Shown: positions 22,082 through 62,905 of the stretch, piece after piece
Position numbering within the stretch: the stretch's first letter is position 1
Layout: each line of letters starts with the position of its first letter
IMG/VR virus record: IMGVR_UViG_3300006224_000008
Span: 1-64,000 of that record
Length of the DNA stretch: 64,000 nt
Direction: 5' to 3' (one strand)
Source of the DNA: a virus
Notes under the pieces: generated by a model
What the model was told of the DNA's origin: nothing
What the model saw: only the letters and a program-made list of their open reading frames with translations
The model's database searches: none
Translations under genes and position numbers: made by a program

Positions 22082-22442
22082 GTGCCCGCCGTTCCTCGTT
22101 TTCGCACTGGCCAGACGTGGTACCGATAAACGACCGAAATTTGATGACATCGTGAAGGCATCCGGCCTGTCGGAGCGCACGTTCATCCGAATCGCATGTC
22201 GTTTTTCGTGGCGCGAGGTCAAGGTGAAGCACATTGACGGCTTTTGCCGGGCGTGCGGGGTAGACCCCTTCAATCTCGAACCGCACCTGGGGTTCCTGAG
22301 ACGGTCACTGACATCGGACAAACCTTTCGCCTACATGACCTCGCAGCAACTGGCGAGGTTCAATGACCATTGTAGTCGGATTGCCGATTTCGCGAGGGCT
22401 ACGGTTTCTGGAGCGCCATCGCGTCAAAGTCAATCTTCATGA
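22044..22442 (+). CDS. Putative Cro/CI-type helix-turn-helix protein
   Basis: FDDIVKASGLSERTFIRI...IDGFCRACGVDP resembles an XRE HTH; start set at MHTPTN. Confidence 0.6.
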   Translation: MHTPTNLLGLLDKCPPFLVFALARRGTDKRPKFDDIVKASGLSERTFIRIACRFSWREVKVKHIDGFCRACGVDPFNLEPHLGFLRRSLTSDKPFAYMTSQQLARFNDHCSRIADFARATVSGAPSRQSQSS

Positions 22443-24234
22443 GGTAAGCACTCCCACCAACTGCCGCAGTCCCGGTCGAACTGGAAATCATGATCTCGAA
22501 ATAGATGTGCCGACCCTCCACGTACATCGGCCATTCGCACCCTTCCGACTGCCTTAACTTCTGGGATGTCAAATTTGTATTGGTGAATTCCTCCTCGCAG
22601 CGAAGGTCCTTGTTTTCGTAATCGTTCCACTGGGGAGAACACTTTGGAGCCGTGCTATTGGGGTCTGTCCTGTTCCATGAGTGCCCAAGGCGCAGCCGGA
22701 TCACTGGCGGCGTGGTTTCCTCGATGGTCTCACGGTCAACGTACACCTGTTGCACTCGTTTCTCCCGGTCGTAAAAGCCTAATGGCGCTTCCGCCCGGAG
22801 AATCGATACGTAACCATCGCTGCGGTACAGGGTACCGATTAGGGCGTCAACCGGCAGGTCCACCGTGACGTTCGACATATCGTCGATGATCAGGAACTCG
22901 CGGTAGTAGGAGCCCCCGATGTTTTTGATTGCGTAATCCACGCCGCTCGCACCAAAGAAATACTGGGTCTCGTTGCACACGCCCGCGGCCGTAGGCGTAT
23001 CCCGGAAGTTCGTAAAGGCCGTAAAACCGGTGTCAACCACGTCCGCCGTCTTTTGCTTAATGTTCGCAACCATCGTCCAGTTGTTGACGGAGAGAGTCCC
23101 GCTGGGCCAGCTAAACCAGATCTCATCCTTGCTGGGCAGGAGTGCTGCGACAGGTGCGTAGCAGTGCGTGCCACCCATGGCTGTTGCTTGGTCGGTAAAC
23201 ATCACGCCGGTTGACAGGTGCAGCCAATCGACGCGTTCCGGTTTTGGAATGTAGGGATCGAATCGGTACACGCCTTCCCGGCTGCAATACCAGTGCTCAG
23301 AGCCGGTGCTTACGAGTGTCTCCGGGTAGAAGAGGCAACCTACCTGATTCTGCGGCTCGCTATAGATCCGAGTGAACGTGAAAACCTCGTCAGCAGTGAG
23401 CGTGCTTGGCGTCATCTTCCAGATGCTGCGCCGCGTGTAGATGTAGACGTCTCGTAGAATGTGCGCGGCGCCAAGAATGTCGTCGCCGTAGGGCAAGTCC
23501 TGAGTCCCGCAAAGCGGCTCGACCTCCGGTGGATCGGCATCGGGATCGAAGTAAGGGTCCCACGCCATTCCGTCGTTAATGTCCGACCACGCGATACGTG
23601 TTGGCTGCGCCACCCCATCCTGCACCACGTTCATCAGGACGAGAAATCCGTTAAACTCGATGGCGATTTTCGCCGCTGTGATTTTGATCGTGGTTTTTAG
23701 CTCACTAACCTCGGTTGTGGTGCCTGCCGCGAGGTCGTGTGCCAGAATGTTGTTCACACCATTCGTGAAGTACAACACGTTCTGGAGTTGGGCGGCCTTC
23801 CATCGGCTTCCGTACGCACCGTAAGCAACATCAGGAAGTTGAATGTCGGTCCAATGTCCCGTTGTGGTGTTCAGCTTCGAAAGCCTGCTCTGCGTGCCGT
23901 CAAACAGGATGCGTTGCCCGCTGTCGGTCGTGCATTCGTGGAGAAACGTTATCGGTTCGCGTGTGGCACCCTGGGCATGATGGTCGTGATTGTGGTAATA
24001 CCACCCGCTGCGGTCATCACTTTGCTCAATCGGAACACCCCACTGGTCGTACAATTTCGAGGCAAATGGATGCTCAAAACCGGCACGTCGTTTCAACCTG
24101 CCGTCGCTGGTGGCCTCCATGTTGAGTTTCCAGCGCCACGCCCCCGGTTGAACCTCGGTGGGGTCCGACCGCACGTCCAGCGGGCCGGTCAGCGGATGGA
24201 GCGAGATCGTTGACCAAACATCTTTCTTAGCCAT
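22399..24234 (-). CDS. Putative tail nozzle/hub protein (P22 gp10 / T7 gp12-like position), beta-propeller
   Basis: 611 aa with the N-terminal LNM...GRLKRRAG motif and RIAWSDIND typical of podophage stabilisation/tubular-B proteins. Confidence 0.6.
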   Translation of the reverse strand: MAKKDVWSTISLHPLTGPLDVRSDPTEVQPGAWRWKLNMEATSDGRLKRRAGFEHPFASKLYDQWGVPIEQSDDRSGWYYHNHDHHAQGATREPITFLHECTTDSGQRILFDGTQSRLSKLNTTTGHWTDIQLPDVAYGAYGSRWKAAQLQNVLYFTNGVNNILAHDLAAGTTTEVSELKTTIKITAAKIAIEFNGFLVLMNVVQDGVAQPTRIAWSDINDGMAWDPYFDPDADPPEVEPLCGTQDLPYGDDILGAAHILRDVYIYTRRSIWKMTPSTLTADEVFTFTRIYSEPQNQVGCLFYPETLVSTGSEHWYCSREGVYRFDPYIPKPERVDWLHLSTGVMFTDQATAMGGTHCYAPVAALLPSKDEIWFSWPSGTLSVNNWTMVANIKQKTADVVDTGFTAFTNFRDTPTAAGVCNETQYFFGASGVDYAIKNIGGSYYREFLIIDDMSNVTVDLPVDALIGTLYRSDGYVSILRAEAPLGFYDREKRVQQVYVDRETIEETTPPVIRLRLGHSWNRTDPNSTAPKCSPQWNDYENKDLRCEEEFTNTNLTSQKLRQSEGCEWPMYVEGRHIYFEIMISSSTGTAAVGGSAYLMKIDFDAMALQKP

Positions 24235-24268
24235 AACGGGTCACCTGTCTTGCCGGAATACCCGGAGA

Positions 24269-25216
24269 CTACCCCTTATCGCCGGGCAGTGGAATATCAA
24301 AACGTCGGACGTACTCCATGAAATCAATCTGGAAAATCGACGCGTTGCGCGTTCGTTCATACTCAACCAGATACCAGTTCTCCTTGATCATCTCCGTTGC
24401 CCTGATGCACTCCGTATGGTCGTAGACCAGTCGCATTCGGGCAATCAAGGTCTCCGCCAGATCAGGCGCCAGCAGTGTGTGACAGGCGAACATCTTGTTG
24501 TACAACGTGTACCCGGCTCGCACCGTAAACCCCTGTTTTTCGCCGGGACTCCAGAACCGGTGCCCAATGGCGATGTCCTCAAGCATCTGGATTTTGCCAC
24601 CGGCGAGGTAAGTCTTGATGGAGATCATGGCTTCATCGCAGCCCCAGTACCGGAGGAAGCGCAGGGGGGAGATAAGGTCGAACCACGATTTTGCAATCAA
24701 GTAGCCTGCCCCCATCAGACACGGGACCGATCCGCCTTCGAATGTGGATGGCCTTTTGCTCCAGTTGACCTCGAACACCTGTTTCTGCTTTGGGTGTACA
24801 GGGTCTGGGCCATACAGGTTCAAGGTCGCGCCGTAGCGATACACCGCCTTGGCGCTGGCCAGGGTCGGATGGAACTTGTCCAGGGCAGCGCACGCGCAGC
24901 AGTAGACCGTCTCGTGCGGTTGGCCGCTGAGCATGGGCAGAAGTCGATCATACCATCCGGCCGGGAACCGCATGTGCCCGTCCACCAAGAGAATCCAGGG
25001 CCTTTTGGCGTAGAGAACGCCGATATTCCGCGACGGGCCGCAGCCGCACCGGAACCGATTGTGCACAACGCCGGTCGCGCCTTTTACATGGACTTTCGTC
25101 GAACTGCAATCGTCCACCACGATGATTTCAACATGGTCCCCGGCAGTCTCCCGAATCGAATCGACCGTATTCTGAAGGTCGGGCTCGTTGACGGCGGCAA
25201 TGATGATCGAGATCAT
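24269..25216 (-). CDS. GT-A glycosyltransferase, polypeptide GalNAc-transferase-like
   Basis: SIIIAAVNE; EIIVVDDCS; RNIG; DGH (DxH); PCLMGAGYLI; WGCDE..IS.KTYLAGG; IGHRF. These motifs parallel the GT27 catalytic domain. Confidence 0.85.
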   Translation of the reverse strand: MISIIIAAVNEPDLQNTVDSIRETAGDHVEIIVVDDCSSTKVHVKGATGVVHNRFRCGCGPSRNIGVLYAKRPWILLVDGHMRFPAGWYDRLLPMLSGQPHETVYCCACAALDKFHPTLASAKAVYRYGATLNLYGPDPVHPKQKQVFEVNWSKRPSTFEGGSVPCLMGAGYLIAKSWFDLISPLRFLRYWGCDEAMISIKTYLAGGKIQMLEDIAIGHRFWSPGEKQGFTVRAGYTLYNKMFACHTLLAPDLAETLIARMRLVYDHTECIRATEMIKENWYLVEYERTRNASIFQIDFMEYVRRFDIPLPGDKG

Positions 25217-26019
25217 AATTTGGTCACCATTGCGCGCTCATCTGCCCAATGGAAAAACGGCTGAAGCCTAGTCGGCCATGGCCCCTGGTATGCCTGTAAA
25301 CGTTCCCAGCGCTTCACAGCGTCCGCGTACCCGTAGTATTGTTCCTTCTGCTCCACTTGCCAGCGGAACGCATAGCTGTAGTGGTCGAACCCAATGCCCC
25401 ACTGCGCGCAGAAGTCTCTCTCCGCGCACTTCTCCTTCGGCCCGTTCGCGCCCGTCAGGAAAGGAGGTTCGTGTGACGTGAAGGTCATCCCTGGTTCGTA
25501 CCGCCATGCCCTGAGCCACTCCCCCGGATTTGCCCCGTAGCAGTTCCTGCCAACCGTGATCAGGCGCGGGCCAACGAAGAATCGGCAATGGAATCTGGCG
25601 CACGTGTAGCCTTCAGCCGGGTCGGAGAGCATCGCACAGACCGCCTCGATGTTGCCCGGCATCCAGATTTCGTCCGCGTCAATCTGCATCAGGATGCAGG
25701 GTTCCTTCAGGCGCCTCAGAACGCAATTATACATCGACACTTTGCCGGGCCAAAGCGCCTGGGTTGTGTGATGAACGCGCCGGTGGGATTTTGCTAGACC
25801 AGCCAGGAACTCAGTGGTGCCATCCACACTCAACCGCGGCTTTGGCTTCTGGCACCAAGCGGTGCACTTCACGTTATCAGCGGCGCCCTCAACGATCCAC
25901 CAGTGCCAATCGACCTCTGGCGGCAAAGCGTTGAAGCAAAACAACTGCGCCGGGAGAAACGGCATTGCATCGAGTGCAATCGTAATTATGTTCAAATTCA
26001 TACTCTGGTGGCCCAGCAT
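25213..26019 (-). CDS. GT-A fold glycosyltransferase-like protein
   Basis: WWIVEG, SVDGTTEFL, MQIDADEIW (DxD), FDHYSY; exact start uncertain. Confidence 0.75.
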   Translation of the reverse strand: MLGHQSMNLNIITIALDAMPFLPAQLFCFNALPPEVDWHWWIVEGAADNVKCTAWCQKPKPRLSVDGTTEFLAGLAKSHRRVHHTTQALWPGKVSMYNCVLRRLKEPCILMQIDADEIWMPGNIEAVCAMLSDPAEGYTCARFHCRFFVGPRLITVGRNCYGANPGEWLRAWRYEPGMTFTSHEPPFLTGANGPKEKCAERDFCAQWGIGFDHYSYAFRWQVEQKEQYYGYADAVKRWERLQAYQGPWPTRLQPFFHWADERAMVTKL

Positions 26020-26534
26020 TGAAACGATGTCTTCTGCGCCTCCGGCAGCAGCTCATCGACAGCCTGTTTGACCCCTGGGTACGTGTCACCGTAATCGTGC
26101 CCCGCCAGGAACCCTCCGGGCCGGATCTTTGGCTTCCAACAGCGGATGTCATCCTTCACGGAAGCGTAATCATGGGCAGCGTCGATAAAAACAGCGCCCA
26201 GTCCATTCTGCACCAAACGTGCCGCTGTGACTGAGGAGCACCGCAGCGGAATGACAAGGTCATCCAGTTTCATCTCGTGGACGTTGGCTGAGAAGGTACC
26301 AAACGGATTTACCACCGTAAGGCCATCGTCGCGCTCATAAATGTCTGGCCACAGGTCAACACAGAGGAGTTTTATATCTTTGCCGGACGCACGGATTCTT
26401 TCACCAAGATAGCAGGCCGATTTTCCAAGGTAAGAACCGACCTCTACGATGTTGTCGCCGGGCGCGAGCAGTTCGACGAACTTATCGTACACGTCCGGGA
26501 AGTCGAAGAAGCCATCGATGTCTGCCCATGTCAT
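25998..26534 (-). CDS. Class I SAM methyltransferase (Methyltransf_24-like)
   Basis: VEVGSYLGKS, VFIDAAHDY, PGGFLAGHDY. Confidence 0.9.
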   Translation of the reverse strand: MTWADIDGFFDFPDVYDKFVELLAPGDNIVEVGSYLGKSACYLGERIRASGKDIKLLCVDLWPDIYERDDGLTVVNPFGTFSANVHEMKLDDLVIPLRCSSVTAARLVQNGLGAVFIDAAHDYASVKDDIRCWKPKIRPGGFLAGHDYGDTYPGVKQAVDELLPEAQKTSFQCWATRV

Positions 26535-26547
26535 ATTGCGATTTTGG

Positions 26548-27264
26548 TTAATGGTTCGAGAAGACCGCCACGTTGTTCGGCATCCCTTCGAGCGTGATCA
26601 GGTCGTGCGTCCTCAGGTCAATCAGTTCGGCGGGAGTGAGTTTTTGCAGATAGAACACTTCGTCCGTCAGTCGGTACGGCCGATCACGGTCATAACCAAA
26701 ACTGTATTCGGCATAGTCCTCCGGATTCATCGACATCATCCGCGCTATTTTCAGTTCGGGAACGCGACTGGGAACCGTCTCCGGCCCTTGCAGCAGGTAC
26801 GAGTAGACGAACTGGGGGATAAACTTATGGCGTACGAGAAAGATCGTGGTCGAACAATTGAATACCTTGTTCCGCCCGAAGATGGCGTTCTTGTTTCCCA
26901 TCTCGCGGTACATCCGATCCACAAAAGGTCCAAACACCAGCGCATCCTGCTCTACATAGAGAAAATCCATCTCGTTGGCATAGGCAATCCAAAGCCCAAT
27001 CATCCACATAGTCGCGCACCCAGACATAACGATCCCCGGTTTGCTGCCGTTCAGCAAGGAGCCCGATCCGCCAAGATTGCCGCTCAGGCAGATCCATTCG
27101 CCCTGACCGGCTGTTGCCACGCAATCGGCTGAAGCGATAATGAAGACGCGACGTGGTTGGGCATGACGCAGGTTTGTTCTCCACCACAGTCGGTGGAACC
27201 AGTCGGCACCCCTGCCGGTCTGCGAGTGATACCCAGAGACAATGATGTAGTGAGGGGTGGTCAT
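26548..27264 (-). CDS. Putative glycosyltransferase-like protein
   Basis: DFLYVEQDALVFG (DxD-like) within the glycosylation cluster. Confidence 0.55.
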   Translation of the reverse strand: MTTPHYIIVSGYHSQTGRGADWFHRLWWRTNLRHAQPRRVFIIASADCVATAGQGEWICLSGNLGGSGSLLNGSKPGIVMSGCATMWMIGLWIAYANEMDFLYVEQDALVFGPFVDRMYREMGNKNAIFGRNKVFNCSTTIFLVRHKFIPQFVYSYLLQGPETVPSRVPELKIARMMSMNPEDYAEYSFGYDRDRPYRLTDEVFYLQKLTPAELIDLRTHDLITLEGMPNNVAVFSNH

Positions 27265-28040
27265 ACGAAAAACTCTCTCATCTGGCTGCGTTCAAGGAAC
27301 CAGTATTCGGCGTTCTTAAATGGTCCCCAGCAATGCAAGGTGTTGGCCTTGATCTTCTGCTTGGTATTGCGCAGCACGAAATGCGGGTACCCGGCAATCC
27401 ACTCAATTCGTTTGCCAAGGTCGCCCATGACGAAACGGCCATCGTGGATTAACAGGTGATGGTCGAAAACGGTCCCGTCCTTAACCTCGAAGGTGTTTCC
27501 GACATTAAACCCGTGCAGCCCGGCAAGCTGAGTCCAGAACGTCATGTCGCTTACGGTCTCAACCGGTTGGTTCGCGAGGTCTACGCCGAGCAGACTCTCG
27601 ACGAAGCCGCAGAACGCCGTCAAAGGTTCGCGCCGACTGATGTAGTAAGGTGCCGTGCGAGCCTCGCCCATGAACGAGACCGAGAAATCGAACTGTGCGA
27701 ACGGCTCGAATGCCTTTTCAAGATTGCCGAACACCATGAAATCCGTGTCGGCGGTGAAGATTGGAAAATCCAGGGAGGTTGCTTCAGCGTATTCGTAAAT
27801 CGCGAACCATCGTGCGAGCGCGGGAGCGTGCAGGGTGCGAAATGGATCATGTAACAATTGATGGGAAATCCGTTCCAAAACGGCATTGCTCTTTCGGAGT
27901 TCGGCGATGTGCGTAAAAGACCCTATGTTGTAATCGTGTTCGCCCAGGACGTGGATAGGACAGCCGCAGTGGGCTTGCGCACACTGCAAAGCAGAGAGCA
28001 GGCCGTCGTATTTTCCCCAACTCGTGAATATCAGGTGCAT
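27261..28040 (-). CDS. Putative nucleotide-diphospho-sugar transferase
   Basis: LARWF, IFTADTDFMVF (DxD), SDMT, TLHCWG..K; start set at MHLIF. Confidence 0.65.
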   Translation of the reverse strand: MHLIFTSWGKYDGLLSALQCAQAHCGCPIHVLGEHDYNIGSFTHIAELRKSNAVLERISHQLLHDPFRTLHAPALARWFAIYEYAEATSLDFPIFTADTDFMVFGNLEKAFEPFAQFDFSVSFMGEARTAPYYISRREPLTAFCGFVESLLGVDLANQPVETVSDMTFWTQLAGLHGFNVGNTFEVKDGTVFDHHLLIHDGRFVMGDLGKRIEWIAGYPHFVLRNTKQKIKANTLHCWGPFKNAEYWFLERSQMREFFV

Positions 28041-28044
28041 AAAG

Positions 28045-28755
28045 TCATGGGCCATGGATTCCATCAGCGCGCCGTTCAAGGTCAAGTTTCTCTTCCGGAG
28101 ACGCTTCACGGTAAATGTCGCAGTGCCGGTCCCAAAGGATGCAGTTGGACTGGTCGCCACGTCGGAAGATGTTGTCCGGTTTGCGCCATTTGGAAATACT
28201 GTAAAAGCCGTCCCAGGTAACCAGTTTGCACGTTCCACCGTGCGTCTCGACAAGCACCGAGAACGCCTGTTCGAACTCGGAGCAATCCAGGTGCGTATTG
28301 ACCTTCTTGGGCCATAAGGATAGCAACGCCGGTGAGCACGCGATGCAGGAGGTCCTCAGGTGCGGCGTGTTCTCGTAGGAAGCCATCGGGCCGTACAATC
28401 CGGGTCCGTACAATGCCCATGCCAGCGCCAGTCGTTCGAGCCACCCTTCCCGCCAGAAGTAAACTGGCGTCGCCATGAACACCGCCATGTCGCAGTCCAA
28501 CCATCTAGCGATTTTCTGGTAGGTGCCGCAGTCCCAACCTGCCCCTTCATTCTTGATCGTGGCATTGCCAAAATACGGCGGCAGGATGGAAACGCCAATA
28601 CCGCAATTGACCACGTAAAGTTCGTGCCTTATAGTCGGAAAGAACCGGCGGTAAGTCTCCATGAAGCGTAGTTCTAACGGATGATAGAACTCCGAGTCCG
28701 GAGCGTCCGGTGTCGCCTTGCCGATGACGTTCAGGTAAACAAGCGCGATTTTCAT
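28045..28755 (-). CDS. Putative glycosyltransferase-like protein
   Basis: HELYVV, N.GWDCGTY, GLYGPMAS, PHLRT; cluster context. Confidence 0.55.
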   Translation of the reverse strand: MKIALVYLNVIGKATPDAPDSEFYHPLELRFMETYRRFFPTIRHELYVVNCGIGVSILPPYFGNATIKNEGAGWDCGTYQKIARWLDCDMAVFMATPVYFWREGWLERLALAWALYGPGLYGPMASYENTPHLRTSCIACSPALLSLWPKKVNTHLDCSEFEQAFSVLVETHGGTCKLVTWDGFYSISKWRKPDNIFRRGDQSNCILWDRHCDIYREASPEEKLDLERRADGIHGP

Positions 28756-28759
28756 GCGG

Positions 28760-29263
28760 CTATGTTTTTTTGAAGGCTATCATTCCGTCGCGTTTCTCCG
28801 CGAGTTCATGGGGCAGGCCGTCGAAGAATGATTTTGGTTCCGGGTAATCCGAGTGATTGTAATCGTGAAACGCCAGGATTCCCCCAATGCTGACGTGAGG
28901 CCACATTACCTCGTAACACCTGACCGTGGTGTCAAGCCTGTGATTGTGATCGATAAATGCGAAAGCAATCGGACCATGGGGCCAAGTTTTGAGCGTATCC
29001 ATGATGTCACCCTTAACCGTATCCACCAACACTCCTTTCCCGATGAAAGGTGAGACGTTCTCCTTCCACTCGTCGAATGCATGGAAGAGGTCCAGGCAAT
29101 GCACTGCCTTCTGGGTAGTGTTCGCGGCCAGGATCGTCGCGGTGGACAGGCCAAGATGGCAACCGACCTCCAATAGGCATCCCGGGACTGTTAAAACCGA
29201 TTGTACCAGCCGCGTCAGCGACTGCGCATCGGCTTCACAGATGAGGCCGGGTATGTCTAACAT
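28760..29263 (-). CDS. Class I SAM methyltransferase
   Basis: LEVGCHLGLST, FAFIDHNH, GGILAFHDY; AAGGAG RBS before MLDIPG. Confidence 0.88.
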   Translation of the reverse strand: MLDIPGLICEADAQSLTRLVQSVLTVPGCLLEVGCHLGLSTATILAANTTQKAVHCLDLFHAFDEWKENVSPFIGKGVLVDTVKGDIMDTLKTWPHGPIAFAFIDHNHRLDTTVRCYEVMWPHVSIGGILAFHDYNHSDYPEPKSFFDGLPHELAEKRDGMIAFKKT

Positions 29264-30183
29264 CCGTACTCCTTCCGCATCCACGCCGCGGTCTTAGCCA
29301 TTCCCTCCTCCAGGCTCACAGTGACCTTGTGATCGAGATCCTGCACTGCAAGTGAAGTATCGGCCTGTTTGCGAGCTGCCGTCATGGCCTCCGGCAGGTC
29401 GCGGAAAAAGACCGGCACACTGACGCCCATGGCGACCTGGGCTGCTTCAGCCAGTTCCTCGATGTTGTGCTCCTTATCGCCCGCGATGTTGTAGACCGCC
29501 CAGGGCTTGAAATTGTCGATGATATTAGCCAGCGTCCGGACACAGTCCGAGACGTAGGTGGAGGTCCGCTTATGGCCTCTGTACACGGTCAATGGAAGTC
29601 CCGTCATTGCGCGGTACAGGAACTGGCAGTTGACTGACCGATAGGGACTGTAGTGTTCCCCCGGCCCATAGGTGTTAAAAAGCCTCACGACGACAATCTC
29701 GGAGCCATACATCCCCGCGTTCGCGCATTGCTGCTCATTGACCCACTTTGTCATGGCGTAGTCGTTGAGCAGGCGCGCCGGAACGAGATGCTCCTGAAGC
29801 GTTCCAGACGTGTCCCCGTAGACCTCCGATGAAGAAAAGTGAATCAACTGGAACGATTCGCGCTGTGCGAACCTGAGAATGTGCTTTGTCCCGATGCAGT
29901 TAGTCCGCCACAGATTCTCGTAGAAGTCTTCGCCGTTCCAGCGCCCGAATTCTGCGGCCAAGTGGTAAACAAAATCCGGTTTACTCCAGCCAACGACCCG
30001 CTCGACGTGACGGTAATCACCAACGTCGCACCGCATGTAATGCCCAGCCGTTGGGAAATGGTCGCCAGTTTCGTCTTCATTGTGGGAAATGTCGCAGCCA
30101 AAAACTTCGTGGCCGCGCTGCTCCAACTCGGGCACTAGGGCGCTCCCGATGGTTCCAAGTGATCCGGTAACGAGTATTCTCAT
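29257..30183 (-). CDS. NAD-dependent nucleotide-sugar epimerase/dehydratase (extended SDR)
   Basis: ILVTGSLGTIG, HLAA, FSSSEVYG, YAMTK (YxxxK), RLFNTYGPG. Confidence 0.93.
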   Translation of the reverse strand: MRILVTGSLGTIGSALVPELEQRGHEVFGCDISHNEDETGDHFPTAGHYMRCDVGDYRHVERVVGWSKPDFVYHLAAEFGRWNGEDFYENLWRTNCIGTKHILRFAQRESFQLIHFSSSEVYGDTSGTLQEHLVPARLLNDYAMTKWVNEQQCANAGMYGSEIVVVRLFNTYGPGEHYSPYRSVNCQFLYRAMTGLPLTVYRGHKRTSTYVSDCVRTLANIIDNFKPWAVYNIAGDKEHNIEELAEAAQVAMGVSVPVFFRDLPEAMTAARKQADTSLAVQDLDHKVTVSLEEGMAKTAAWMRKEYGC

Positions 30184-30653
30184 GTGATAGTGACCTCCAG
30201 AACGTTGCTCAGGTAAGAAGTGTGCGGCAGCAAAGTGCGGAAGTGCCGCTGGTGCTTAACGCGTTTCAAAAGCGGCTGCCAGTAGTCCCTCTCCGTGTCG
30301 TGTGCGACGATGCAGCAAGGTTTGTTCAGAAACATCTCCGCGCAGGCCACGCGGTCTTGTCCGAGATAACAGTCAATGAAAACGACGTCCCAATCGTCTT
30401 TGACCATCGCTGCCGCCCCAGCGACCATGTTGGACACGAGCCGCAGCTTATTGCCCGCGACTGGCCAGAGTGTCTCAACCCATGACCTGTCGGTCTCCAG
30501 CGTTACCACTGATGGGGAAATCGCGTGGAGCAGAGGAGTCGAGTAACCACCGGCACCAAGTTCAAGTACGCGAGGCCCAAACTTCATTACGGCCAGAGCC
30601 AATGCTGGCATGTGCGACGCGCAGGCTTCGCAAATGGTGAGGGATGTGTTCAA
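30180..30653 (-). CDS. Class I SAM methyltransferase-like protein
   Basis: VLELGAGGYST, WDVVFID, IVAHDT. Confidence 0.8.
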   Translation of the reverse strand: MNTSLTICEACASHMPALALAVMKFGPRVLELGAGGYSTPLLHAISPSVVTLETDRSWVETLWPVAGNKLRLVSNMVAGAAAMVKDDWDVVFIDCYLGQDRVACAEMFLNKPCCIVAHDTERDYWQPLLKRVKHQRHFRTLLPHTSYLSNVLEVTIT

Positions 30654-31345
30654 GGGACCTTCCTCCGGATTAAGGGCTGCATGCGTCTGACTTCATCGAC
30701 ACGCACCTGTAAAGGCAGGCTCGGCCAATGACAGACGAAATCGCCGGGCATCCACTGGCCCCGGTGACCGAAGTAGTCCAGTCCCTTTCGGGGCTCATTT
30801 CTGGTCGGATACATTTTAGCGAAGAAATGGTACTCATAGGAGTTGAGCATCCACTGGGGCAGGATTTTCACGGTGCCTTGGTAGTTCCCAAGCGTGTCAA
30901 TCATGGCGGCATTTTCGACCCATCTGTTGTCCTTGTACTTCGGATACAGGGCGAGCAGATCGTTCAGCCAGCCGATCCCCTGTGGCGTCGCCCGGACAAG
31001 AAACGAATCGGCCTGGATCGGCGCGCACCAATCGGCCGCCGCGACAACGTGGCAGTCGTCGTAGGTTCGGTCCTCCAGCCGAATGCCAAAGTTGGTAATG
31101 AGAACATCGGCCCCGGAGCACCACGCCCAATCCCACTCGCCGGAAACCAGGAGGTCCCGCAGAAACTTCAGCCGGTCCCAGGAAACCGGATGTGCAGCGG
31201 GCATCGCCCAGCCATCGGTCTTAACCTTCAGCGTGTATCCGTGCGCGGCGCAGTATTCCGCCCGATTCCCGTAAATCGTCAGCTTCGCCAACGCTGCGAA
31301 CGATGGCAGATGCGCTGCAACACAGACAATTCGTTGACTGGTCAT
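30650..31345 (-). CDS. GT34 (GMA12/MNN10-like) glycosyltransferase
   Basis: YCAAHGY, W.RL, DWAWCSGADVLITN, SFLVR, LNSY, W.PGDFVCHWP. Confidence 0.82.
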   Translation of the reverse strand: MTSQRIVCVAAHLPSFAALAKLTIYGNRAEYCAAHGYTLKVKTDGWAMPAAHPVSWDRLKFLRDLLVSGEWDWAWCSGADVLITNFGIRLEDRTYDDCHVVAAADWCAPIQADSFLVRATPQGIGWLNDLLALYPKYKDNRWVENAAMIDTLGNYQGTVKILPQWMLNSYEYHFFAKMYPTRNEPRKGLDYFGHRGQWMPGDFVCHWPSLPLQVRVDEVRRMQPLIRRKVP

Positions 31346-31866
31346 GTTGGGGTCGAGGTATTCTGAGTAACAGAGTCGGAGGGGGTCCCAACTACAGCCT
31401 CAACCCTAACAAAGTCGAGCGGGACCTCATAGAATTCTCGTTCGCGGTGTTTCGCGGTATCCAGTTTTCTCACGCGGACCCAGTGTTTGAAGGTCGAACA
31501 ATAGACCACGAATGCGACGGTCATCTCTCGATTGAGGATGATGTACGCGTAGGGTTTTGGTCTGGCCCGGTCATAGGCGTGACAGACGTCTACAATGAGG
31601 GTCCTAAAAGGAAAATCCTCCTTGCAGGTGAAGGTTAGACGGGGCCGGTGCTTTACCTCTACGCGTTGCATGATCTCCAGGTCGCCACTATCCCCATACT
31701 CCCCCATCTGAGCGACATCTGGCCGTTCGAAAGTTGGCCGGATGACCACCGGGTACCCGCGGTCGGAGAGCCATGCCGCAGCGACGCGAACTGCAATCTT
31801 GCTCGCTCGAAGGTCCGAAATAAAGTTTGGATCATCCGCGTAATTGCTTATCAGTGGTAACTGCAT
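31342..31866 (-). CDS. Hypothetical protein, possible PD-(D/E)XK fold
   Basis: DSGDL...VEVKHR. Confidence 0.55.
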   Translation of the reverse strand: MQLPLISNYADDPNFISDLRASKIAVRVAAAWLSDRGYPVVIRPTFERPDVAQMGEYGDSGDLEIMQRVEVKHRPRLTFTCKEDFPFRTLIVDVCHAYDRARPKPYAYIILNREMTVAFVVYCSTFKHWVRVRKLDTAKHREREFYEVPLDFVRVEAVVGTPSDSVTQNTSTPT

Positions 31867-31903
31867 TAGTGGACCGCGTGGGATTGTCGAATGCGCAGAG
31901 GCT

Positions 31904-32404: not shown

Positions 32405-32976
32405 GTCTCCTTAACAAAAAGTAACTGGTATCCCTCCGCGACAAGCTTCCAGCCGCGTCCCAACAGGAACAACTTTGACAGGGCGGTCTTGCCGCCGTGA
32501 GGGGGGAAACAATCATCCATGAGGATCGCGCACGGCCTCCGCAGCAGGCAATAGACAGCCCCCACTTCCGCCAACTGATGCAACTGCGAGGGAAGCCAGT
32601 TGCCCTCTTCGTAGTCGTAAGAATCCAGGTAAACGAAATCGATATGGTCAAGGCATCTAACCGTTTCGACGCTGTCTCCGGGAACCAGCCAGACATCCTT
32701 GTCTCTCGCCAGTCCAAACTTCGCGAGATGCGTAACCGCCTGTTCAATGTGGTTCGGGTTCAATTCAAAGCTGCTGAACTTCGCGCCGATGTGCCGTGCC
32801 AGTTTCGCCAGGATGATCGTGCTTTGGCCATCCTGCGGAATGCCCCGGTAACAGCCGGTCTCGGCCAGATACTTGCATTCGTTGGCCATAATCCACTCAG
32901 CGGCAGCGCGGAAAGTCTTTGCCCGAAGCCCGCCCGCCAACTGCTCGATCTCTTTCAGCAAGGGTTCGTCGATCAT
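32401..32976 (-). CDS. Class I SAM methyltransferase-like protein
   Basis: AETGC.R, DGQST, GDSV, IDFVYLDS, ILMDD, GGK; start MIDEP overlaps the upstream stop (ATGA). Confidence 0.8.
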   Translation of the reverse strand: MIDEPLLKEIEQLAGGLRAKTFRAAAEWIMANECKYLAETGCYRGIPQDGQSTIILAKLARHIGAKFSSFELNPNHIEQAVTHLAKFGLARDKDVWLVPGDSVETVRCLDHIDFVYLDSYDYEEGNWLPSQLHQLAEVGAVYCLLRRPCAILMDDCFPPHGGKTALSKLFLLGRGWKLVAEGYQLLFVKET

Positions 32977-35306
32977 ATCGTTAAGATTGGGGTGAATTTG
33001 AGGCTGGGCAGATGTTTCTGAGCCCATTCGTAGAAGAGTTTCCGGTTGTGTTTCTGGCTGGGCGCGCTGTCGGTGTTCTCCGGCCTGTTCCAAAACGGCA
33101 TGTGGAATTGATGCGAAACGAAACCCTTCGGAAGCTCGCACGGCCAGAGTACTTCGCCCAGGTTTAGCCGGTCTGACTGGATGCCTTTTTCGACGCGGAT
33201 CATGGCGGCAAGGCACAGGTCGAACTCGGATGCGCCCAGGATAAAATCAGGGATGTCCCCCCAGTGATGCAGCAACCATGCTTTCGTGAAGGCAAAGAGG
33301 TCTCGGCCTATGTGTTTTAGGCTGGATGCAGCGGCAATTACGTGCGGATCGGATGCCTGTGATGGGACCGGACAGTTCTGGAACTCGCATCGATGCGAAC
33401 TGACGGCGTCGTAAATGGAGACGTAGAACCTGAGCAGTTCCGGCAGCAAGGCATGGAGATGGTTGTCGTCATTCGTCCACATGATGATGTCCGAGGGTTC
33501 CGCCTTTAGCATGGCCGCCCAGAGGACGTCTTTCAGGTAAGGCAGTCTGCGCCGGTCGCCAATGCGCCTCGCGTCACGGGGGTATTGTGAGAAGTGGCAA
33601 GGAACGACGGCCTTATCGTAGAGCACTTTCCAGGTCTGCTGGGCTGCGGCTTTCCGCTTGCGTTCGGCGTCGTTGCCAGCCTCGTGGCGTTCTACTGCAT
33701 GGAAAATTCTCCGAGTTGGCGGGGATGCCAGCGGCGGATGCGGGATTTGCCGTCTCGCGACTGCGCGGTCCATCAGTAGCTTAAGGCCGGGTCGTAATTC
33801 CCGCGCAATATCCTTGCCCACTGAGTCATAGTCGGTGATGGCAGCGTACGGAGCACACGGGCGCGGCGCCGTTCCCAACCAGGGTTTCGAGTTTCGAATC
33901 ACGATGGTCGGCACGCCGCAGGCTGTCGCAAAATGGATGGGCGCCGTGTCGATTGACACCACTCCGGCGGCGCGGTCCATCAGACCCAGCAAATCGTAGA
34001 TGCGATGCAGTTTCAACGCGGAGATGTCGAGAACGCCCAACCGCCCGGATACTTCTTGCCGAATCCATTGGAGAACTTTTGCACCATGAGGCCACGGCGA
34101 CGAGTGGCTCGTCATGACGTTGACGAGTAGTGTGTTCGGCCCGACGCGCAGCTTGGCGGCTGCCGTCTGCTCGCGCTCAGTGTTACGCTGGTCGAATATC
34201 GGTGCCCAGGTCGGATCGTCAAACTTGTGCAGGAACCCAAGCAAGCGCCAGCTCTCACGATTGAAAGCATCACACTGTCGCGGCATTTCGAACCGAGTGC
34301 CCCACACCTGCCCTTGAAGGACAAAACCGAAGTTCTGCCGCCCGATGGCGAGCGCATCGTTAATCTGGTCATGCGTCAGGTCCACCGGGTAAGGTTCGAC
34401 GTAGGAGACACCATCCAGAATGTCGGCGAACTGCTTGCTAACCACGAGATAAGGTTTTGCGTAGCGTTCGCAGACGTGCCTGCAAATCGGGAGGATGTTG
34501 ACGATGTCGCCATAACGGCCAAGCTCCACGATGCATACCGAAGTCTTGAGTGGCGCATCCGGAAGCGTTGATGTGAACTGCTTGGATTTGTTCGCCCAGT
34601 TGACATCGAAGTGCGGCTTCAGCACGTTCACGCCGGTCTTCACCAGACGCGCATTGATGCGGCGCTGCAAGTCCTTCGCAATCCGCTCGTGGCTGGTCTC
34701 CCTGCCCGGTTTGTCGTCTCCTTCGCCGCTCATGTGGTACACGCCATTGGCCCACCGGTAAACAAATGAGATTCGGTCACGCGGAATGTTGATACGCTCG
34801 CCCTTGCATTGCTCCGTTACTTTCGCGATGAAGGCGCGGTCCTCTCCACAACCCATGTGCGGGTATCCGCCAACTTTCACCCAGGCGCTCTTCTTGAAGC
34901 TGAACAACGGGCAGGATCCGGGCGAGATTTCCACGATGTCAGTGCCCCGGGCGGAGAACTGTTTGTCGATCCAAATCCATTCGTTGTCCTTAAAGACGTT
35001 CCCGATGTTTTCCAGATGATGCGGCAGGTAAACGTCGTCGTCATCCCAAGTGACGATCACTGAATCCGGTAAAGCCTGAGTAATGGCGTAGTTCCGCGCT
35101 TCGCCAAGGGATGCAGGCCGCGTCTTGCAGTTGATGATCCGGACGTTCTGAAACTCGCCTTGCAGGATCTGCCCGGGGAATGTGTTGTAGACGATGAGTT
35201 CATGCGCAGCCGGGTACTGCTGCGTGTTGAAACAGGCGAGGGCGACCTCCAACTGTTTGACTCGCCCAAATGTGCAGCAGATCGCGGTTATGCGCGGCAA
35301 TGTCAT
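32973..35306 (-). CDS. Three-domain glycosyltransferase fusion (GT2 + GT9-like + GT-A-like)
   Basis: CCTFGR..TWDDDD..GED (GT2); LGRYGDIVNILP..VSIDTAPIHFA (GT9); LPYLKD..MWTNDD..GRDLFAF (third domain). Confidence 0.85.
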   Translation of the reverse strand: MTLPRITAICCTFGRVKQLEVALACFNTQQYPAAHELIVYNTFPGQILQGEFQNVRIINCKTRPASLGEARNYAITQALPDSVIVTWDDDDVYLPHHLENIGNVFKDNEWIWIDKQFSARGTDIVEISPGSCPLFSFKKSAWVKVGGYPHMGCGEDRAFIAKVTEQCKGERINIPRDRISFVYRWANGVYHMSGEGDDKPGRETSHERIAKDLQRRINARLVKTGVNVLKPHFDVNWANKSKQFTSTLPDAPLKTSVCIVELGRYGDIVNILPICRHVCERYAKPYLVVSKQFADILDGVSYVEPYPVDLTHDQINDALAIGRQNFGFVLQGQVWGTRFEMPRQCDAFNRESWRLLGFLHKFDDPTWAPIFDQRNTEREQTAAAKLRVGPNTLLVNVMTSHSSPWPHGAKVLQWIRQEVSGRLGVLDISALKLHRIYDLLGLMDRAAGVVSIDTAPIHFATACGVPTIVIRNSKPWLGTAPRPCAPYAAITDYDSVGKDIARELRPGLKLLMDRAVARRQIPHPPLASPPTRRIFHAVERHEAGNDAERKRKAAAQQTWKVLYDKAVVPCHFSQYPRDARRIGDRRRLPYLKDVLWAAMLKAEPSDIIMWTNDDNHLHALLPELLRFYVSIYDAVSSHRCEFQNCPVPSQASDPHVIAAASSLKHIGRDLFAFTKAWLLHHWGDIPDFILGASEFDLCLAAMIRVEKGIQSDRLNLGEVLWPCELPKGFVSHQFHMPFWNRPENTDSAPSQKHNRKLFYEWAQKHLPSLKFTPILTI

Positions 35307-42291: not shown

Positions 42292-44010
42292 TTACTGTGG
42301 AGCCGTGGTGGTTGTGGTCGTCGTCAGGGTGCCAGGATACGTACCCACCAACGTCGCGTGTTCGGGAATTTCGCTGCTGAAATTCTCGATGATGAGATTG
42401 GCCGACGGGCATTCCACGATCATCGTCCAGGTAACGCTGGTAAGCGTCTGCTGCTGCGTGTTCACCGCCATGACGCAGGCATAGTCGGCGTTGATCTTGG
42501 CCAGTGTTTCCAGGTCGCCGGTGCGGTGCACCTTGCGATTGGAGGCGAGGATACCCGGGTAGATTCCGGCAAAATCCAATATCCAGAGCACCCTCGCCGT
42601 GTCCGCCTGACCGGCAGCCGTTGCCGCCGTCAGGTAATCGTCGAAATAGTAGTGGGTCACGACGTTGAATTCCACGCCTTGCGGCCAGAATAACGGGTAG
42701 GTGCGGAAGCTGAACCCGAAGTTCGCTCTCTTGGCTTTGCCGAACGTCTCCACCGGGACCATCAGCCGGGCCATGCCATCGGATTTGCTGTTGTAGTACT
42801 TGATCATGGCCTGATTGATGAGTTCGGCCGTGACCCCGTCCGTGAAGACGTCGAAAACCTTTGGATTCGGGTGATTGCGGCCCTCGCGGACACGCATCAT
42901 GTTGTAGAACGCCTGGAACAGCGCTGGGAGGTTGAGCTGGGTGCCCTGGGAATCATGAACCCGACCGCACTCGGCCATCAGTTCGTAGATCCCGATGGCG
43001 TTCGCTCGCTTGCCAACACAGGTGCCGCCATCCACGCCCAGGAGTGTCGAGGCAATATCGAATGCGGGGATGTCCTCCAGATCGGCGTAATCAGTCGCAT
43101 TCTGGTTCGCCAGGGCTTTGCCCCAGAACATCTGATCCACAAACCGGCGCTGCCAGTCGTTCGCGATCTGTTTGTTCTTCTCGATCTCGTCGAGATCGAA
43201 GAACTCCTTGTACAGGGCGTTGTCGGCCATGACCAGTTCTCGCCACTTGTCGTACTGGTCGCTCTTGCACATGCTGTTGCGGACGGTTTCCACCCAGAAC
43301 GGAACGTTCTTCCAGTTCAGGTAGGCGGGCATTTCGGCGCACCATTTCTCGAAATCGTTCACGTTGGGCGTGCCGCGCCGGGCGAGGCCGGTCACTGGAC
43401 TGCCCAGTTTATCGGCGTCGAGGAATGACCCCGTGTTCTCCTGCGTCAAATTGAGCGTGAGCGTGTCATCGCCGTTATCGGTCACCGCGGCGACTTTCCA
43501 TGCTGTCTTCGTGGAGCTTCCGCCCTCCGAAACGCCATCGATGAAAATACGCAACCCAACGGGGAAGGAACGGACGTCGGCTGGAATGTTCGTGCTGGAT
43601 GCGACGATGATCTGCCAGTCAATGCCTTCGAGAGCGGGATCGTTGCCGCCGGTAACCAGCCAATACGCGTTGTTGATTGGGGAATACTGGCGGGCGAGAA
43701 TGAATGGCGCGATTTCCAGGAGGCCACCGGGCAGCCGCCGGGTCTGCATCGTTTTATGAACGGCGACCTTGTTCGCCATGAAGAAGTCGTACAAACCGTT
43801 CTGGACGGCCTCGCACATCTTGATCTCCATGTCGTGATGGAAAAGCGCTTCCATCACGCGGAACTCACCGGTTTTCATATAGGCGCTGGTGAGATCGCCT
43901 TCGGTCATCGGTTTGGCGCTACAAATCGTTACCGATCCGCACTGCTTGATGTTGGTCGAGATCGCGGGAGCGCACTTCGCGAATGCATTGGCATTGAGAG
44001 CAAAACTCAT
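42292..44010 (-). CDS. Putative major capsid protein with C-terminal poly-Thr tail
   Basis: Synteny portal-small-scaffold-this gene-hairpin-adaptor; MFWGK...RANAIGI resembles an HK97-fold segment; ends TLTTTTTTTAPQ. Confidence 0.72.
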   Translation of the reverse strand: MSFALNANAFAKCAPAISTNIKQCGSVTICSAKPMTEGDLTSAYMKTGEFRVMEALFHHDMEIKMCEAVQNGLYDFFMANKVAVHKTMQTRRLPGGLLEIAPFILARQYSPINNAYWLVTGGNDPALEGIDWQIIVASSTNIPADVRSFPVGLRIFIDGVSEGGSSTKTAWKVAAVTDNGDDTLTLNLTQENTGSFLDADKLGSPVTGLARRGTPNVNDFEKWCAEMPAYLNWKNVPFWVETVRNSMCKSDQYDKWRELVMADNALYKEFFDLDEIEKNKQIANDWQRRFVDQMFWGKALANQNATDYADLEDIPAFDIASTLLGVDGGTCVGKRANAIGIYELMAECGRVHDSQGTQLNLPALFQAFYNMMRVREGRNHPNPKVFDVFTDGVTAELINQAMIKYYNSKSDGMARLMVPVETFGKAKRANFGFSFRTYPLFWPQGVEFNVVTHYYFDDYLTAATAAGQADTARVLWILDFAGIYPGILASNRKVHRTGDLETLAKINADYACVMAVNTQQQTLTSVTWTMIVECPSANLIIENFSSEIPEHATLVGTYPGTLTTTTTTTAPQ

Positions 44011-61321: not shown

Positions 61322-61625
61322 TACGCGAAAGGGTCAGAACTCAGTTGTTGGAGTCGATGTGCCTGATGCTGGCGATGCTGGTGATCATCGTTTCCTTGGG
61401 TTGTTCATTCCAAGGGTTTGTCTTCGGCTTAAGTTCAGCGAAAGTCCAGTTGGGTTTGATGTCCGCCCACGACCACGCTTCTTTCCCGTCCACATGAAGA
61501 TGGAATAGCGGTTTCTCTTTAGGCATTTCCGGGTGATCGAGTGATAATAGTAGCTTCTCGATTTCTGCCGCAATGCGCTGTTTTTCTGTTAGACTGAACA
61601 TAAAGATACGCGAAAGGGTTAGAAC
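61322..61625. repeat. 19-bp direct repeats (1 mismatch) flanking one small gene
   Basis: tacgcgaaagggtcagaac (61322-40) and tacgcgaaagggttagaac (61607-25). Confidence 0.85.
61341..61601 (-). CDS. Small phage hypothetical protein (MFSLTEKQRIA...HPEMP...WSWADI.PN)
   Basis: Fits exactly between the two direct repeats. Confidence 0.75.
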   Translation of the reverse strand: MFSLTEKQRIAAEIEKLLLSLDHPEMPKEKPLFHLHVDGKEAWSWADIKPNWTFAELKPKTNPWNEQPKETMITSIASIRHIDSNN

Positions 61626-62905
61626 GCTGGTTGTTCCTTGATTTTCGGCAGGATATTCGGCCACGTCTTCAGCATCTGGTTGTACTTCGCCGTGCTTAGT
61701 TCAGTCAGCTTCCGCTGTTCCGGCTTGGCCAGCTTCACTTCATGCGCCCAGTTCATGACCTGGGGTTCGCTTACGCCGTTCTTGTGCATCATCAAGCGGA
61801 CGTTTTGCAGCTCATCACTCTCGTTCGAGTTCGGCACGAATGGCGCAGCCGGTTCTGACTGTGTGGCAGGTTCAGCCGGTGCCGGTGTCGGGACTTGCAT
61901 TGTTATTGTTGTCGTAGTTGTGGTCTGCGTTTGCGATGCTGGCGCAAGACCCGCGGCGGCTTCAGCTTCCTCGTCGGAGGGTTCGACCTTCTCTTTAGCG
62001 CTATTGTCCTGTGGCGCATTGGTGGATGGCTGCTGTGCTGGTGGTGTTGTGGATGTCACGACAGCGGGCGCCGTTTTTTTCGTCTCCTGAGTCGGCGGCT
62101 TCGGTTGTCCGGGAATCTCCGGGGCTTTGGTTGCGGGCCTCACGGGCGCAAAAATCTCCTCGATGGAACACCCTTCCTGCCCGTCCTTGATGGCCGTAAA
62201 CAGGCCAAAAAGAACCTCAAGATCCGAGAGTTCAATCTCTTCCACTGTTTTCTTCTCCACCTTAGCGAGTAGTTGTTCGGTGGTGACCCCGATCTTGCTG
62301 AACTTTTCGATGGCCCGGGCACGCCGTTGCACAAGAGATTTGGCCGTTCCGATGGCCACAGCTTTGGCCTGTTCGAACACAGGCTTGATTAGGGCCAGCG
62401 GGACGATCTTGTAAATAGCGTCGCGAAAGGCGATTGCACTGCAAGCGTTGGTAGCAAGATTGATGTCGTCCTCGTCGATGGCGAGTTTGCTCTTCTTTTT
62501 TGTGATACGGCGCCGTTTCTCCATGCTGACCGTGATGTTGTTCTCAAGGTCGGTAGCGATTGCCTGGACAACCACGTGCGGGTTCTCACCGTTGACCACG
62601 GATTGAATGATACGCGAACCTGCCCGGAGATTGCCGTAGCACGATGCCGCAATCTCAGCCAGCCGGACGCTTGGTCCCTGGATTAACTTCCCGCCTCTGG
62701 GCAGAGAGTAGAAGCAGGACTCTGCGGTCTCTTCATCCAAAGTGGCGAAGCTCATCATCTTGGCCTTTACTCGGGCCAGTTCGCGGGGGTATTTGCGTGC
62801 GGTAGCGATGGAAATGTCTACCTCTGCGCGGGTGACTGCCTCAACCGCTGATGGGGCGAGGACTTCGAGGGGCGCCTCACTACTGCCCATGCTTTGGTCG
62901 TTCAT
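61619..62905 (-). CDS. Phage protein, possible ssDNA-annealing/recombination protein
   Basis: IATARKYPR..CFYSLPRGGK.IQGPSVRLAE N-terminal domain, disordered linker, small C-terminal domain; near the exonuclease gene. Confidence 0.6.
   Translation of the reverse strand: MNDQSMGSSEAPLEVLAPSAVEAVTRAEVDISIATARKYPRELARVKAKMMSFATLDEETAESCFYSLPRGGKLIQGPSVRLAEIAASCYGNLRAGSRIIQSVVNGENPHVVVQAIATDLENNITVSMEKRRRITKKKSKLAIDEDDINLATNACSAIAFRDAIYKIVPLALIKPVFEQAKAVAIGTAKSLVQRRARAIEKFSKIGVTTEQLLAKVEKKTVEEIELSDLEVLFGLFTAIKDGQEGCSIEEIFAPVRPATKAPEIPGQPKPPTQETKKTAPAVVTSTTPPAQQPSTNAPQDNSAKEKVEPSDEEAEAAAGLAPASQTQTTTTTTITMQVPTPAPAEPATQSEPAAPFVPNSNESDELQNVRLMMHKNGVSEPQVMNWAHEVKLAKPEQRKLTELSTAKYNQMLKTWPNILPKIKEQPAF

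Follow-up and report, generated by a model that had tools for sequence, protein, structure and literature searches.

The gene at positions 24269 to 25216 on the minus strand of the window (the whole stretch of 64,000 bases that was analysed) encodes a protein whose nearest solved relatives, by sequence and by predicted fold, are the eukaryotic polypeptide GalNAc-transferases (ppGalNAc-Ts, family GT27) and not the ordinary GT2 enzymes. The reading preferred here, which we judge to lie just on the probable side, is that this GT27-like protein is soluble, depends on Mn, lacks a lectin domain and initiates O-glycosylation of the capsid tail. The fold and the family are supported in this interpretation and the function is plausible. 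Judged from the sequence, this phage probably puts a coat of sugars on its own capsid. Mucin-type O-glycosylation, which is started by GT27 enzymes, is regarded as a eukaryotic Golgi process. To our knowledge, virion glycosylation of tailed phages has so far been documented for mycobacteriophages, with unrelated enzymes.

Phage record and the GT27-like gene

The IMG/VR phage record is linear, comprises 73,570 bases and has a CheckV completeness of 88%; the window is its first 64,000 bases. The stretch 23000-32000 is present in seven sequencing runs from three freshwater/wetland studies, which shows that it is a recurrent phage in nature. No RNA runs are among the sequencing runs listed for that stretch. 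No tRNA genes were found in the 64-kb window and no 16S rRNA was found in the phage record. The terminase of the window has no match in the GenBank phage records. The gene under study is as follows.

24269..25216, minus strand: GT27-like (ppGalNAc-T-like) soluble glycosyltransferase, 315 aa, catalytic domain only (identified by the ORF, PDB sequence matches and fold)

The ORF starts with ATG and its coordinates are exactly those given in the earlier note. Its start codon and the stop codon of the 268-aa gene upstream overlap in the sequence ATGA. The 283-aa version of the gene caller (P0001) would remove the first strand and helix, both of which are conserved in the homologues. The motif order that the earlier note had read was confirmed in the translation, with VVDDCS (D35-D36), RNIG (63-66), DGH (79-81) and LMGAGYLI (167-174) followed by WGCDE (191-195), GG (206-207) and IGHRF (217-221). 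The lectin domain is absent, as had also been claimed: the enzyme stops at residue 315 and its only Pfam match is Glycos_transf_2 (PF00535) on residues 3-107. The four NCBIfam matches are weak and all sub-threshold, and no PHROGs family is matched. The enzyme has neither a type II membrane anchor nor a stem, and there is no N-terminal extension, the model opening with a Rossmann strand at residues 2-8.

Sequence relatives of the enzyme

The enzyme was compared by phmmer with 177,635 distinct PDB sequences. Sixteen sequences were matched at E<=1, and the top 13 are all polypeptide GalNAc-transferases, from the best match (E 3.1e-07) to the 13th, which is Toxoplasma GalNAc-T3 (8uhv). The HMMER alignment with ppGalNAc-T pairs DGH with DSH, WGCDE with WGGEN and IGHRF with VGHIF. 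In these sequence comparisons the likeness of the enzyme to ppGalNAc-T is well past chance.

Profile A1 was built on 25 relatives (283-365 aa, all metagenomic) that were drawn from 5.8 billion clustered proteins. This profile matched 16 GT27 sequences in the PDB with E-values from 3.9e-28 to 3.2e-21, the matches extending from position 4-5 to position 236-307. Outside GT27 the best enzyme is a chondroitin synthase, which reached an E-value of 6.4e-12 and matched positions 5-106 only. The phage enzyme thus has the C-terminal half that is specific to GT27 (Gal/GalNAc-T region), as both the profile span and the fold alignment indicate.

The family of the enzyme comprises 1348 representatives at the 50% identity level (E<=1e-3), and 109 of them are found at E<=1e-30. 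Conservation was counted in the best 150 of the 1348 representatives, where D36 is kept in 147/150, D79 and H81 in 145/150 each, E195 in 147/150 and H219 in 146/150. D79 and H81 (DxH) together with the distal H219 align with the GT27 ligands and are putative Mn2+ ligands. WGGEN(xE) is known as the Gal/GalNAc-T motif of GT27. In the WGCDE of the enzyme, W191, G192 and the acidic residue at 194 are kept, and the Asn position of WGGEN is occupied by the conserved E195. The sugar pocket would therefore be unlike that of GT27.

The enzyme and its relative P0023 had no tblastn match in 50,697 GenBank phage records. The search of genome contigs with profile A2 returned only generic N-terminal GT2 matches (the best at 25% identity over residues 1-216), and since the A2 search patterns are subfamily-specific, this result says little on bacteria. 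Longer relatives were also scanned for additional domains (n=26). Ten of the 26 are fused to a LanC-like domain, which is a peptide-modifying domain, two to PF11397, which is a protein GlcNAc-transferase domain and which we take to represent the GT60 protein alpha-GlcNAc-transferases of the Skp1 Gnt1 type, and one to a peptidase M3 domain. A lectin domain fusion was found in 0/26. The cluster look-up of 10 fused relatives returned metagenomic records only, with generic names.

Predicted fold

The AlphaFold2 model of the enzyme has a pLDDT of 95.0 and a pTM of 0.92. Among the Foldseek matches listed, ranks 1-49 are all ppGalNAc-Ts (E 1.5e-16 to 5.3e-14), and the ppGalNAc-T matches have TMq values of 0.60-0.77 and identities of 16-21%. 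The structural search against 48,161 representative chains placed GalNAc-T1 first (Z 26.9, rmsd 2.8, 282/315 residues aligned) and TgGalNAc-T3 second (Z 26.3, 273/315 residues aligned). The next chain after this GT27 pair is B4GALNT1 (Z 17.3), and the ordinary GT2 enzymes have Z-scores of at most 17.1. A structure closer to ordinary GT2 enzymes had been named in the earlier note as evidence that would speak against its proposal; the nearest chains are those of GT27, at 26.9 and 26.3 versus 17.3 or less, an outcome in favour of that proposal. In the BFVD fold search, the only matches were uncharacterised proteins from uncultured phages and from giant viruses, the best with an E-value of 1.5e-13.

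Gene block around the enzyme

The gene of the enzyme is located in one late minus-strand block that runs from the capsid and tail genes through to the virion structural protein. The head and tail genes come first in the block, followed by the sugar cluster, and the virion structural protein at 22399-24234 is the last. The features of the head and tail part and its surroundings are as follows.

48750-50273, strand opposite to the block: terminase
45876-48338, minus strand: probable portal-sized ORF, start of the block
42292..44010, minus strand: major capsid protein (crAss/SU10-like), 572 aa (atlas feature and structure matches, SU10_MCP and Crass_capsid clusters)
42295..42333, minus strand: capsid C-terminal tail GTLTTTTTTTAPQ, the proposed acceptor
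Head/tail part of the block, minus strand: DUF5977 protein and 1318-aa tail protein

The sugar cluster and the gene that follows it are as follows.

32973..35306, minus strand: 777-aa multi-domain glycosyltransferase (Pfam GT2 on residues 12-110)
30650..31345, minus strand: GT34-like (GMA12/MNN10-type) glycosyltransferase, accessory (PF05637, E 4e-08; in 1/10 relatives)
29257..30183, minus strand: NAD-dependent nucleotide-sugar epimerase/dehydratase (SDR), accessory (Pfam Epimerase, E 2.9e-37; PHROG 540, E 6.7e-58; in 0/10 relatives)
28760..29284, minus strand: second Methyltransf_24 methyltransferase, accessory (Pfam E 1.3e-17; in 2/10 relatives)
26548-27264, 27261-28253 and 28045-28755, minus strand: three ORFs of the sugar block, family unassigned, patchy among relatives (no Pfam, NCBIfam or PHROG match)
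25998..26534, minus strand: class I SAM methyltransferase (Methyltransf_24), variable accessory (Pfam E 2.3e-19; in 2/10 relatives)
25213..26019, minus strand: 268-aa GT-A-like protein, its stop overlapping the start of the GT27-like gene (Pfam GT2 E 2.7e-4, below the cut-off)
22399..24234, minus strand: virion structural protein, directly downstream of the enzyme gene (PHROG 3287, E 4.5e-28; in 10/10 relatives)

The 777-aa protein has an N-terminal GT2-like part, a middle part that is faintly heptosyltransferase-I-like (TIGR02193 on residues 438-474, E 0.005) and a C-terminal part with a second DD motif, and alignment A4 shows conserved blocks in the protein. The fold that was predicted for it from a 5-row alignment is poor (pLDDT 61.6), and it has one weak match to the PDB sequences (E 0.021). 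The 268-aa protein has no relative among the PDB sequences, whether it was searched singly or as a profile.

Two further features of the window are located outside this cluster. A TibC/Aah-like domain at 2346-5522 was identified by TIGR04414 (E 8.8e-73, 245 bits versus a cut-off of 200), and this TibC-like protein is found in 0/10 related genomes. The other feature is a protein with an internal tract.

61619..62905, minus strand: 428-aa protein with an internal QTQTTTTTTITM tract (PHROG 3657, unknown function)

From its sequence, the QTQTTTTTTITM tract of this protein is a possible second acceptor. The rest of the phage genome has matches to DUF7694 and AAA only.

Poly-Thr tail of the capsid protein

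The major capsid protein at 42292-44010 ends in the peptide GTLTTTTTTTAPQ, which the earlier note had named. The codons of its Thr run are mixed (ACG ACG ACC ACA ACC ACC ACG). Capsid homologues were collected at E<=1e-3 (375), and the tails were counted in the best 120 of these 375. A Ser/Thr tract is found within the last 130 residues in 117/120: it is placed in the last 20 residues in 105 and before a C-terminal extension in 12, and there is none in the other 3. In longer capsid homologues the poly-Thr stretch precedes a DUF5977 domain, as a linker. The composition of the tail is conserved and its exact sequence varies among the homologues, which is as expected of an acceptor that is read by its composition, although a flexible linker would look alike.

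Co-occurrence of the enzyme and the Thr tract

The viral records collected for the capsid family number 38, 11 of which have the enzyme, and 28 further enzyme-bearing records were added, 9 of which have the capsid family. Only records that are at least 85% complete were counted for co-occurrence. The enzyme is present in 8/8 records with a Ser/Thr tract (G000, G001, G003, G006, G007, G019, G046, and G041) and in 0/5 records without a tract (G022, G024, G027, G033, and G036). In G036, which lacks the enzyme, a 619-aa ORF does contain a T5 tract. One record is discordant (L243/G052, 30% complete), since the enzyme is present and its capsid protein ends in VYTPTAEEEYYY, which is not Thr-rich. Distant family members (22-26% identity) are found in G058, G065, and G064, and no convincing poly-Thr partner was found in those genomes.

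A tblastn matrix was constructed from 42 ORFs of the window and 10 related genomes, of which five bear the enzyme and five lack it. Besides the GT27-like gene itself, three genes match the pattern of enzyme presence exactly, namely those for the 268-aa and 777-aa proteins and a Cys-rich ORF of 139 aa. The 268-aa gene is found in 5/5 enzyme-bearing and 0/5 enzyme-lacking near-complete relatives; it is present in G046 and not in G041. The methyltransferase, SDR and GT34-like genes are patchy across the 10 genomes. In G041 the capsid tail has three Thr only, and a neighbouring 821-aa ORF has T9-S-T4-S-TT. This genome has kept the GT27-like gene, lacks the 268-aa gene and retains 26% of the 777-aa gene, and its gene content therefore favours the GT27-like enzyme as the tract's partner.

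The capsid tree was constructed with the tail columns left out. The phages that lack both the tail and the enzyme form one clade, and G022 is placed inside the tailed clade, having lost the tail and all three transferases. Each trait changes twice on the capsid tree. With 1-2 independent pairs, the tree-aware sign test yields p = 1. The association of tail and enzyme is not statistically significant because there are two independent changes only, with which the test has no power.

Other loci with poly-Thr ORFs

The gene of the enzyme adjoins giant poly-Thr ORFs in other phages. Locus L020, on a record of 204 kb, has an ORF that contains Thr runs of 22, 8 and 50 and whose end is 300 bp ahead of the enzyme gene. 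At locus L030, about 200 bp separate the enzyme gene from the end of a preceding ORF that contains about 77 consecutive Thr. The 10-kb flanks of 34 GT27-like loci and 39 comparison loci were also compared. ORFs with T5 or longer runs show no enrichment (9/34 versus 13/39); those with T7 or longer runs are found at 6 GT27-like loci versus 3 comparison loci, and those with T10 or longer runs at 3 versus 0, a comparison for which the second set is not a clean negative control, since it consists of PF11397 GT60-type enzymes that have poly-Thr ORFs of their own. At these comparison loci the poly-Thr ORFs are located 2-6 kb downstream of the enzymes.

Comparison with known systems

The closest known enzymes, the eukaryotic ppGalNAc-Ts of GT27, include mouse GalNAc-T1 (8v9q), human T2 (2ffu and 4d0t), T4, T10, T12, Drosophila PGANT9, and Toxoplasma GalNAc-T3 (8uhv). 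The phage enzyme is similar to GT27 in the fold of the whole catalytic domain, in the DxH and distal His, in part in the WG..E motif and in the Ser/Thr-rich disordered acceptors that it probably has. In contrast, GT27 enzymes have a signal anchor, a stem and a ricin-type lectin domain, all three of which are absent from the phage enzyme. The phage enzyme also differs from GT27 in having WGCDE for WGGEN, in being phage-encoded and in that it would act in the bacterial cytoplasm and not in the Golgi. It is not filed here as a GT27 member, because two hallmarks of that family, the lectin domain and the membrane anchor, are lacking.

GT60 is a soluble, lectin-less, peptide-directed relative of GT27. 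The alignment of the phage members of PF11397 (L045 and others) with the profile covers the regions of the DxH and of the distal His (hhalign probability 96.7). L045 matches PF11397 at 4.6e-70, whereas the enzyme of the window has no match to it at E<=0.01. The ordinary GT2 enzymes (K4CP, TarS, SpsA, and AvpGT/PglI) have the GT-A fold and the PF00535 N-terminal half in common with the enzyme, but the sequence likeness ends at about residue 106 and the fold Z-scores are at most 17.1, compared with 26-27 for GT27.

According to PMC12619734, there are mycobacteriophages, Che8 among them, in which phage transferases glycosylate the C-termini of capsid and tail-tube subunits, a finding reported by Freeman et al. 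(2023, Cell Host Microbe). The enzymes of Che8 differ from the family described in this work. Che8 gp108-110 align with it with hhalign probabilities of 11.7, 1.9 and 0.1, sharing at most a generic GT-A N-terminal half. The capsid and tail-tube proteins of Che8 end in ...NKTGS and ...YSDGS and have no poly-Thr run, and its transferase genes are located at the extreme right of the genome, whereas the enzyme of the window is located inside the virion block. The open-access literature that was searched yielded no paper describing a GT27-like enzyme of a phage together with poly-Thr virion proteins.

Proposed function and alternatives

The enzyme would be a soluble cytoplasmic GT-A glycosyltransferase with a divalent metal of the Mn2+ type. 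It would be expressed late in infection, alongside the virion proteins, and would draw a nucleotide sugar from the host pool. The first sugar would be placed onto the threonine hydroxyls of the disordered capsid tail GTLTTTTTTTAPQ, and the chain would then be extended by two further transferases, the gene-coupled one of 268 aa and the multi-domain one of 777 aa. The variable methyltransferases, the SDR and the GT34-like enzyme may perform lineage-specific tailoring, giving a mucin-like coat on the capsid. The earlier note had proposed a GT27-like initiator on Thr-rich tracts. The catalytic-domain fold and the family bear out the first part of this proposal; for the acceptor the evidence is that of genomic context, and the initiating role is one that we infer, as we do the choice of the capsid tail, the sugar identity, the anomeric linkage and the role of the coat. 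Several observations weigh against this reading: the WGCDE motif in place of WGGEN, the discordant record L243/G052, the distant members in G058, G065 and G064, the T5 tract of G036, the missing enrichment of T5 ORFs in the flanks, and the fact that poly-Thr may serve simply as a flexible linker.

An alternative within the same pathway, and on the same virion poly-Thr target, is that the enzyme extends a glycan begun by another transferase, for which the candidates are the 268-aa protein, a domain of the 777-aa protein and the TibC/Aah-like domain at 2346-5522. This alternative is in our view unlikely. The TibC/Aah-like domain is a bona fide member of a protein O-heptosyltransferase family (TIGR04414), but its absence from all 10 related genomes argues against it as the starter. 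The 268-aa and 777-aa genes share a presence/absence pattern across those genomes, and the faint heptosyltransferase-like part of the 777-aa protein could start a chain; against this, both the GT27-like gene and a strong tract are retained in G041 without the 268-aa gene and with the same 26% of the 777-aa gene. The likeness to the GT27 fold alone leaves the acceptor unfixed, yet the nearest characterised relatives of the enzyme are all peptide-initiating, and the poly-Thr ORFs of L020 and L030 are located directly before the GT27-like gene.

It is likewise improbable that the acceptor is not a protein at all (a host envelope glycan, a lipid-linked sugar or a small molecule) and that the poly-Thr tail is an unrelated linker or spacer. 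Phage transferases that alter host surface sugars are well known, according to PMC12619734, and some relatives are annotated as 'glycosyltransferase involved in cell wall biosynthesis'; however, the enzyme has no membrane segment, its model opening directly with the first strand, its gene is among late virion genes and not in a lysogeny module, and relatives are fused to peptide-modifying domains. The lack of statistical significance in the co-occurrence, the distant members without a poly-Thr partner and the linker position of the tract before DUF5977 are consistent with such a non-protein acceptor, whereas the joint loss of enzyme and tract in G022 and the giant poly-Thr ORFs that adjoin the enzyme gene in other phages argue for the tract. 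Glycosylation of hypermodified bases in the phage DNA, as by T4-type glucosyltransferases, is very improbable. DNA glycosylation is presented as a classic role of phage transferases in PMC12619734, but no match to thymidylate-synthase/hydroxymethylase (PF00303) was found in the 88%-complete record, with controls positive in 10/14 genomes, and both the fold, which is nearest to peptide-directed enzymes, and the co-occurrence with a capsid feature point away from DNA.

Implications

Initiation of O-glycosylation on the capsid tail by the GT27-like enzyme is the reading carried forward here. A wider reading is offered tentatively and is doubtful when all of its parts are taken jointly. According to it, the enzyme would belong to a very large and so far unnamed family in prokaryotic viruses and bacteria, made up of soluble relatives of ppGalNAc-T that act on peptides and lack the lectin domain, and these enzymes would write mucin-like coats on poly-Thr tags. 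The tags would be carried by phage capsids and tail proteins, other members would act on ribosomal peptides (LanC-like fusions), and the capsid of the phage described in this work would bear a lineage-specific methylated glycan shield. Mucin-type initiation would then not be a eukaryotic invention and would have a common origin with a phage and bacterial system.

If a phage does pair a GT27 relative consisting of the catalytic domain only with a conserved poly-Thr capsid tag, that soluble enzyme could serve as a simple model of peptide O-glycosylation and possibly as a tool to add sugars to Thr tags in bacteria. Sugar-coated capsids would perhaps be common among freshwater phages, and the findings would bear on the origin of the GT27 fold.

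A second candidate for a protein-directed transferase

A further enzyme with four domain parts is encoded near the start of the window.

2346-5522, + strand: four-part enzyme of 1058 aa (TIGR04414 and further domains)

TIGR04414, the autotransporter O-heptosyltransferase family (Aah/TibC), covers residues 4-348 of this protein (E 8.8e-73; 245 bits vs a cut-off of 200). Beyond it lie three more parts: FtsJ-like methyltransferase, GT2, and GT1. The protein is a second candidate for a protein-directed transferase in the window. Its counterpart is present in none of the 10 related genomes that were searched.

Fibre, tail-module and DUF5977 proteins

2-688, + strand: collagen-like tail-fibre ORF, (GTS/GTT/GEA)n
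36074-40030, - strand: tail-module protein of 1318 aa
40037-41719, - strand: DUF5977 protein of 560 aa with three DUF5977 copies

The collagen-like ORF, which is incomplete as it is cut by the record start, matches Pfam Collagen (E 5.9e-15) and tail-fibre PHROGs. Its product was put forward in the earlier note as a candidate acceptor. In the tail-module protein, parts of VWA, F5/8 type C-like, and calcineurin-like phosphoesterase type were recognised, along with the linker TETATATATATST. The DUF5977 ORF is the second gene after the capsid gene. Homologues of the capsid protein (P0176, P0178, P0188, and others, of ~640-657 aa) exhibit DUF5977 fused at the capsid C-terminus, where it is positioned after the poly-Thr tract.

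ORFs without a clear family

8955-21587, + strand: single ORF of 4210 aa
21662-22081, + strand: ORF of 139 aa with two CxxC pairs

The Pfam search of the 4210-aa ORF, which is Pro-rich at its start and Gly/Arg-rich at its end, returned no match. Relatives match it only partially, as in the related genome G003 (41% identity across 26% of its length). Among 10 related genomes, the CxxC ORF, for which the family search gave no match, occurs in exactly the five that have the GT27-like gene. A search of G041 and G046, two further genomes that carry the GT27-like gene, did not find it.

Transferase genes and poly-Thr ORFs in other phages

L020:8408-9697: poly-Thr ORF of 430 aa, directly upstream of a GT27-like gene, Thr runs of 22, 8, and 50
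L030:3153-4160: poly-Thr ORF of 336 aa, directly upstream of a GT27-like gene, Thr run of ~77

The Pfam search assigned no family to either of these ORFs. A PF11397 enzyme (protein GlcNAc-transferase, GT60-type; 411-424 aa) was identified in six phage loci (L045, L048, L049, L051, L056, and L071), where ORFs with C-terminal runs such as PGPTTTTTTTIIPTTTTTTIIP start ~2-5 kb past the end of the enzyme gene.

LanC-like fusions among relatives of the GT27-like enzyme

Ten relatives of the GT27-like enzyme (P0115, P0117, P0124, P0126, P0135, P0137, P0145, P0158, P0163, and P0169; E 1e-26 to 5e-33 with the window enzyme as query) carry a C-terminal LanC-like domain. All members that were looked up are metagenomic and bear generic names. 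The presence of this domain suggests that ribosomal peptides are the glycosylation targets of these relatives.
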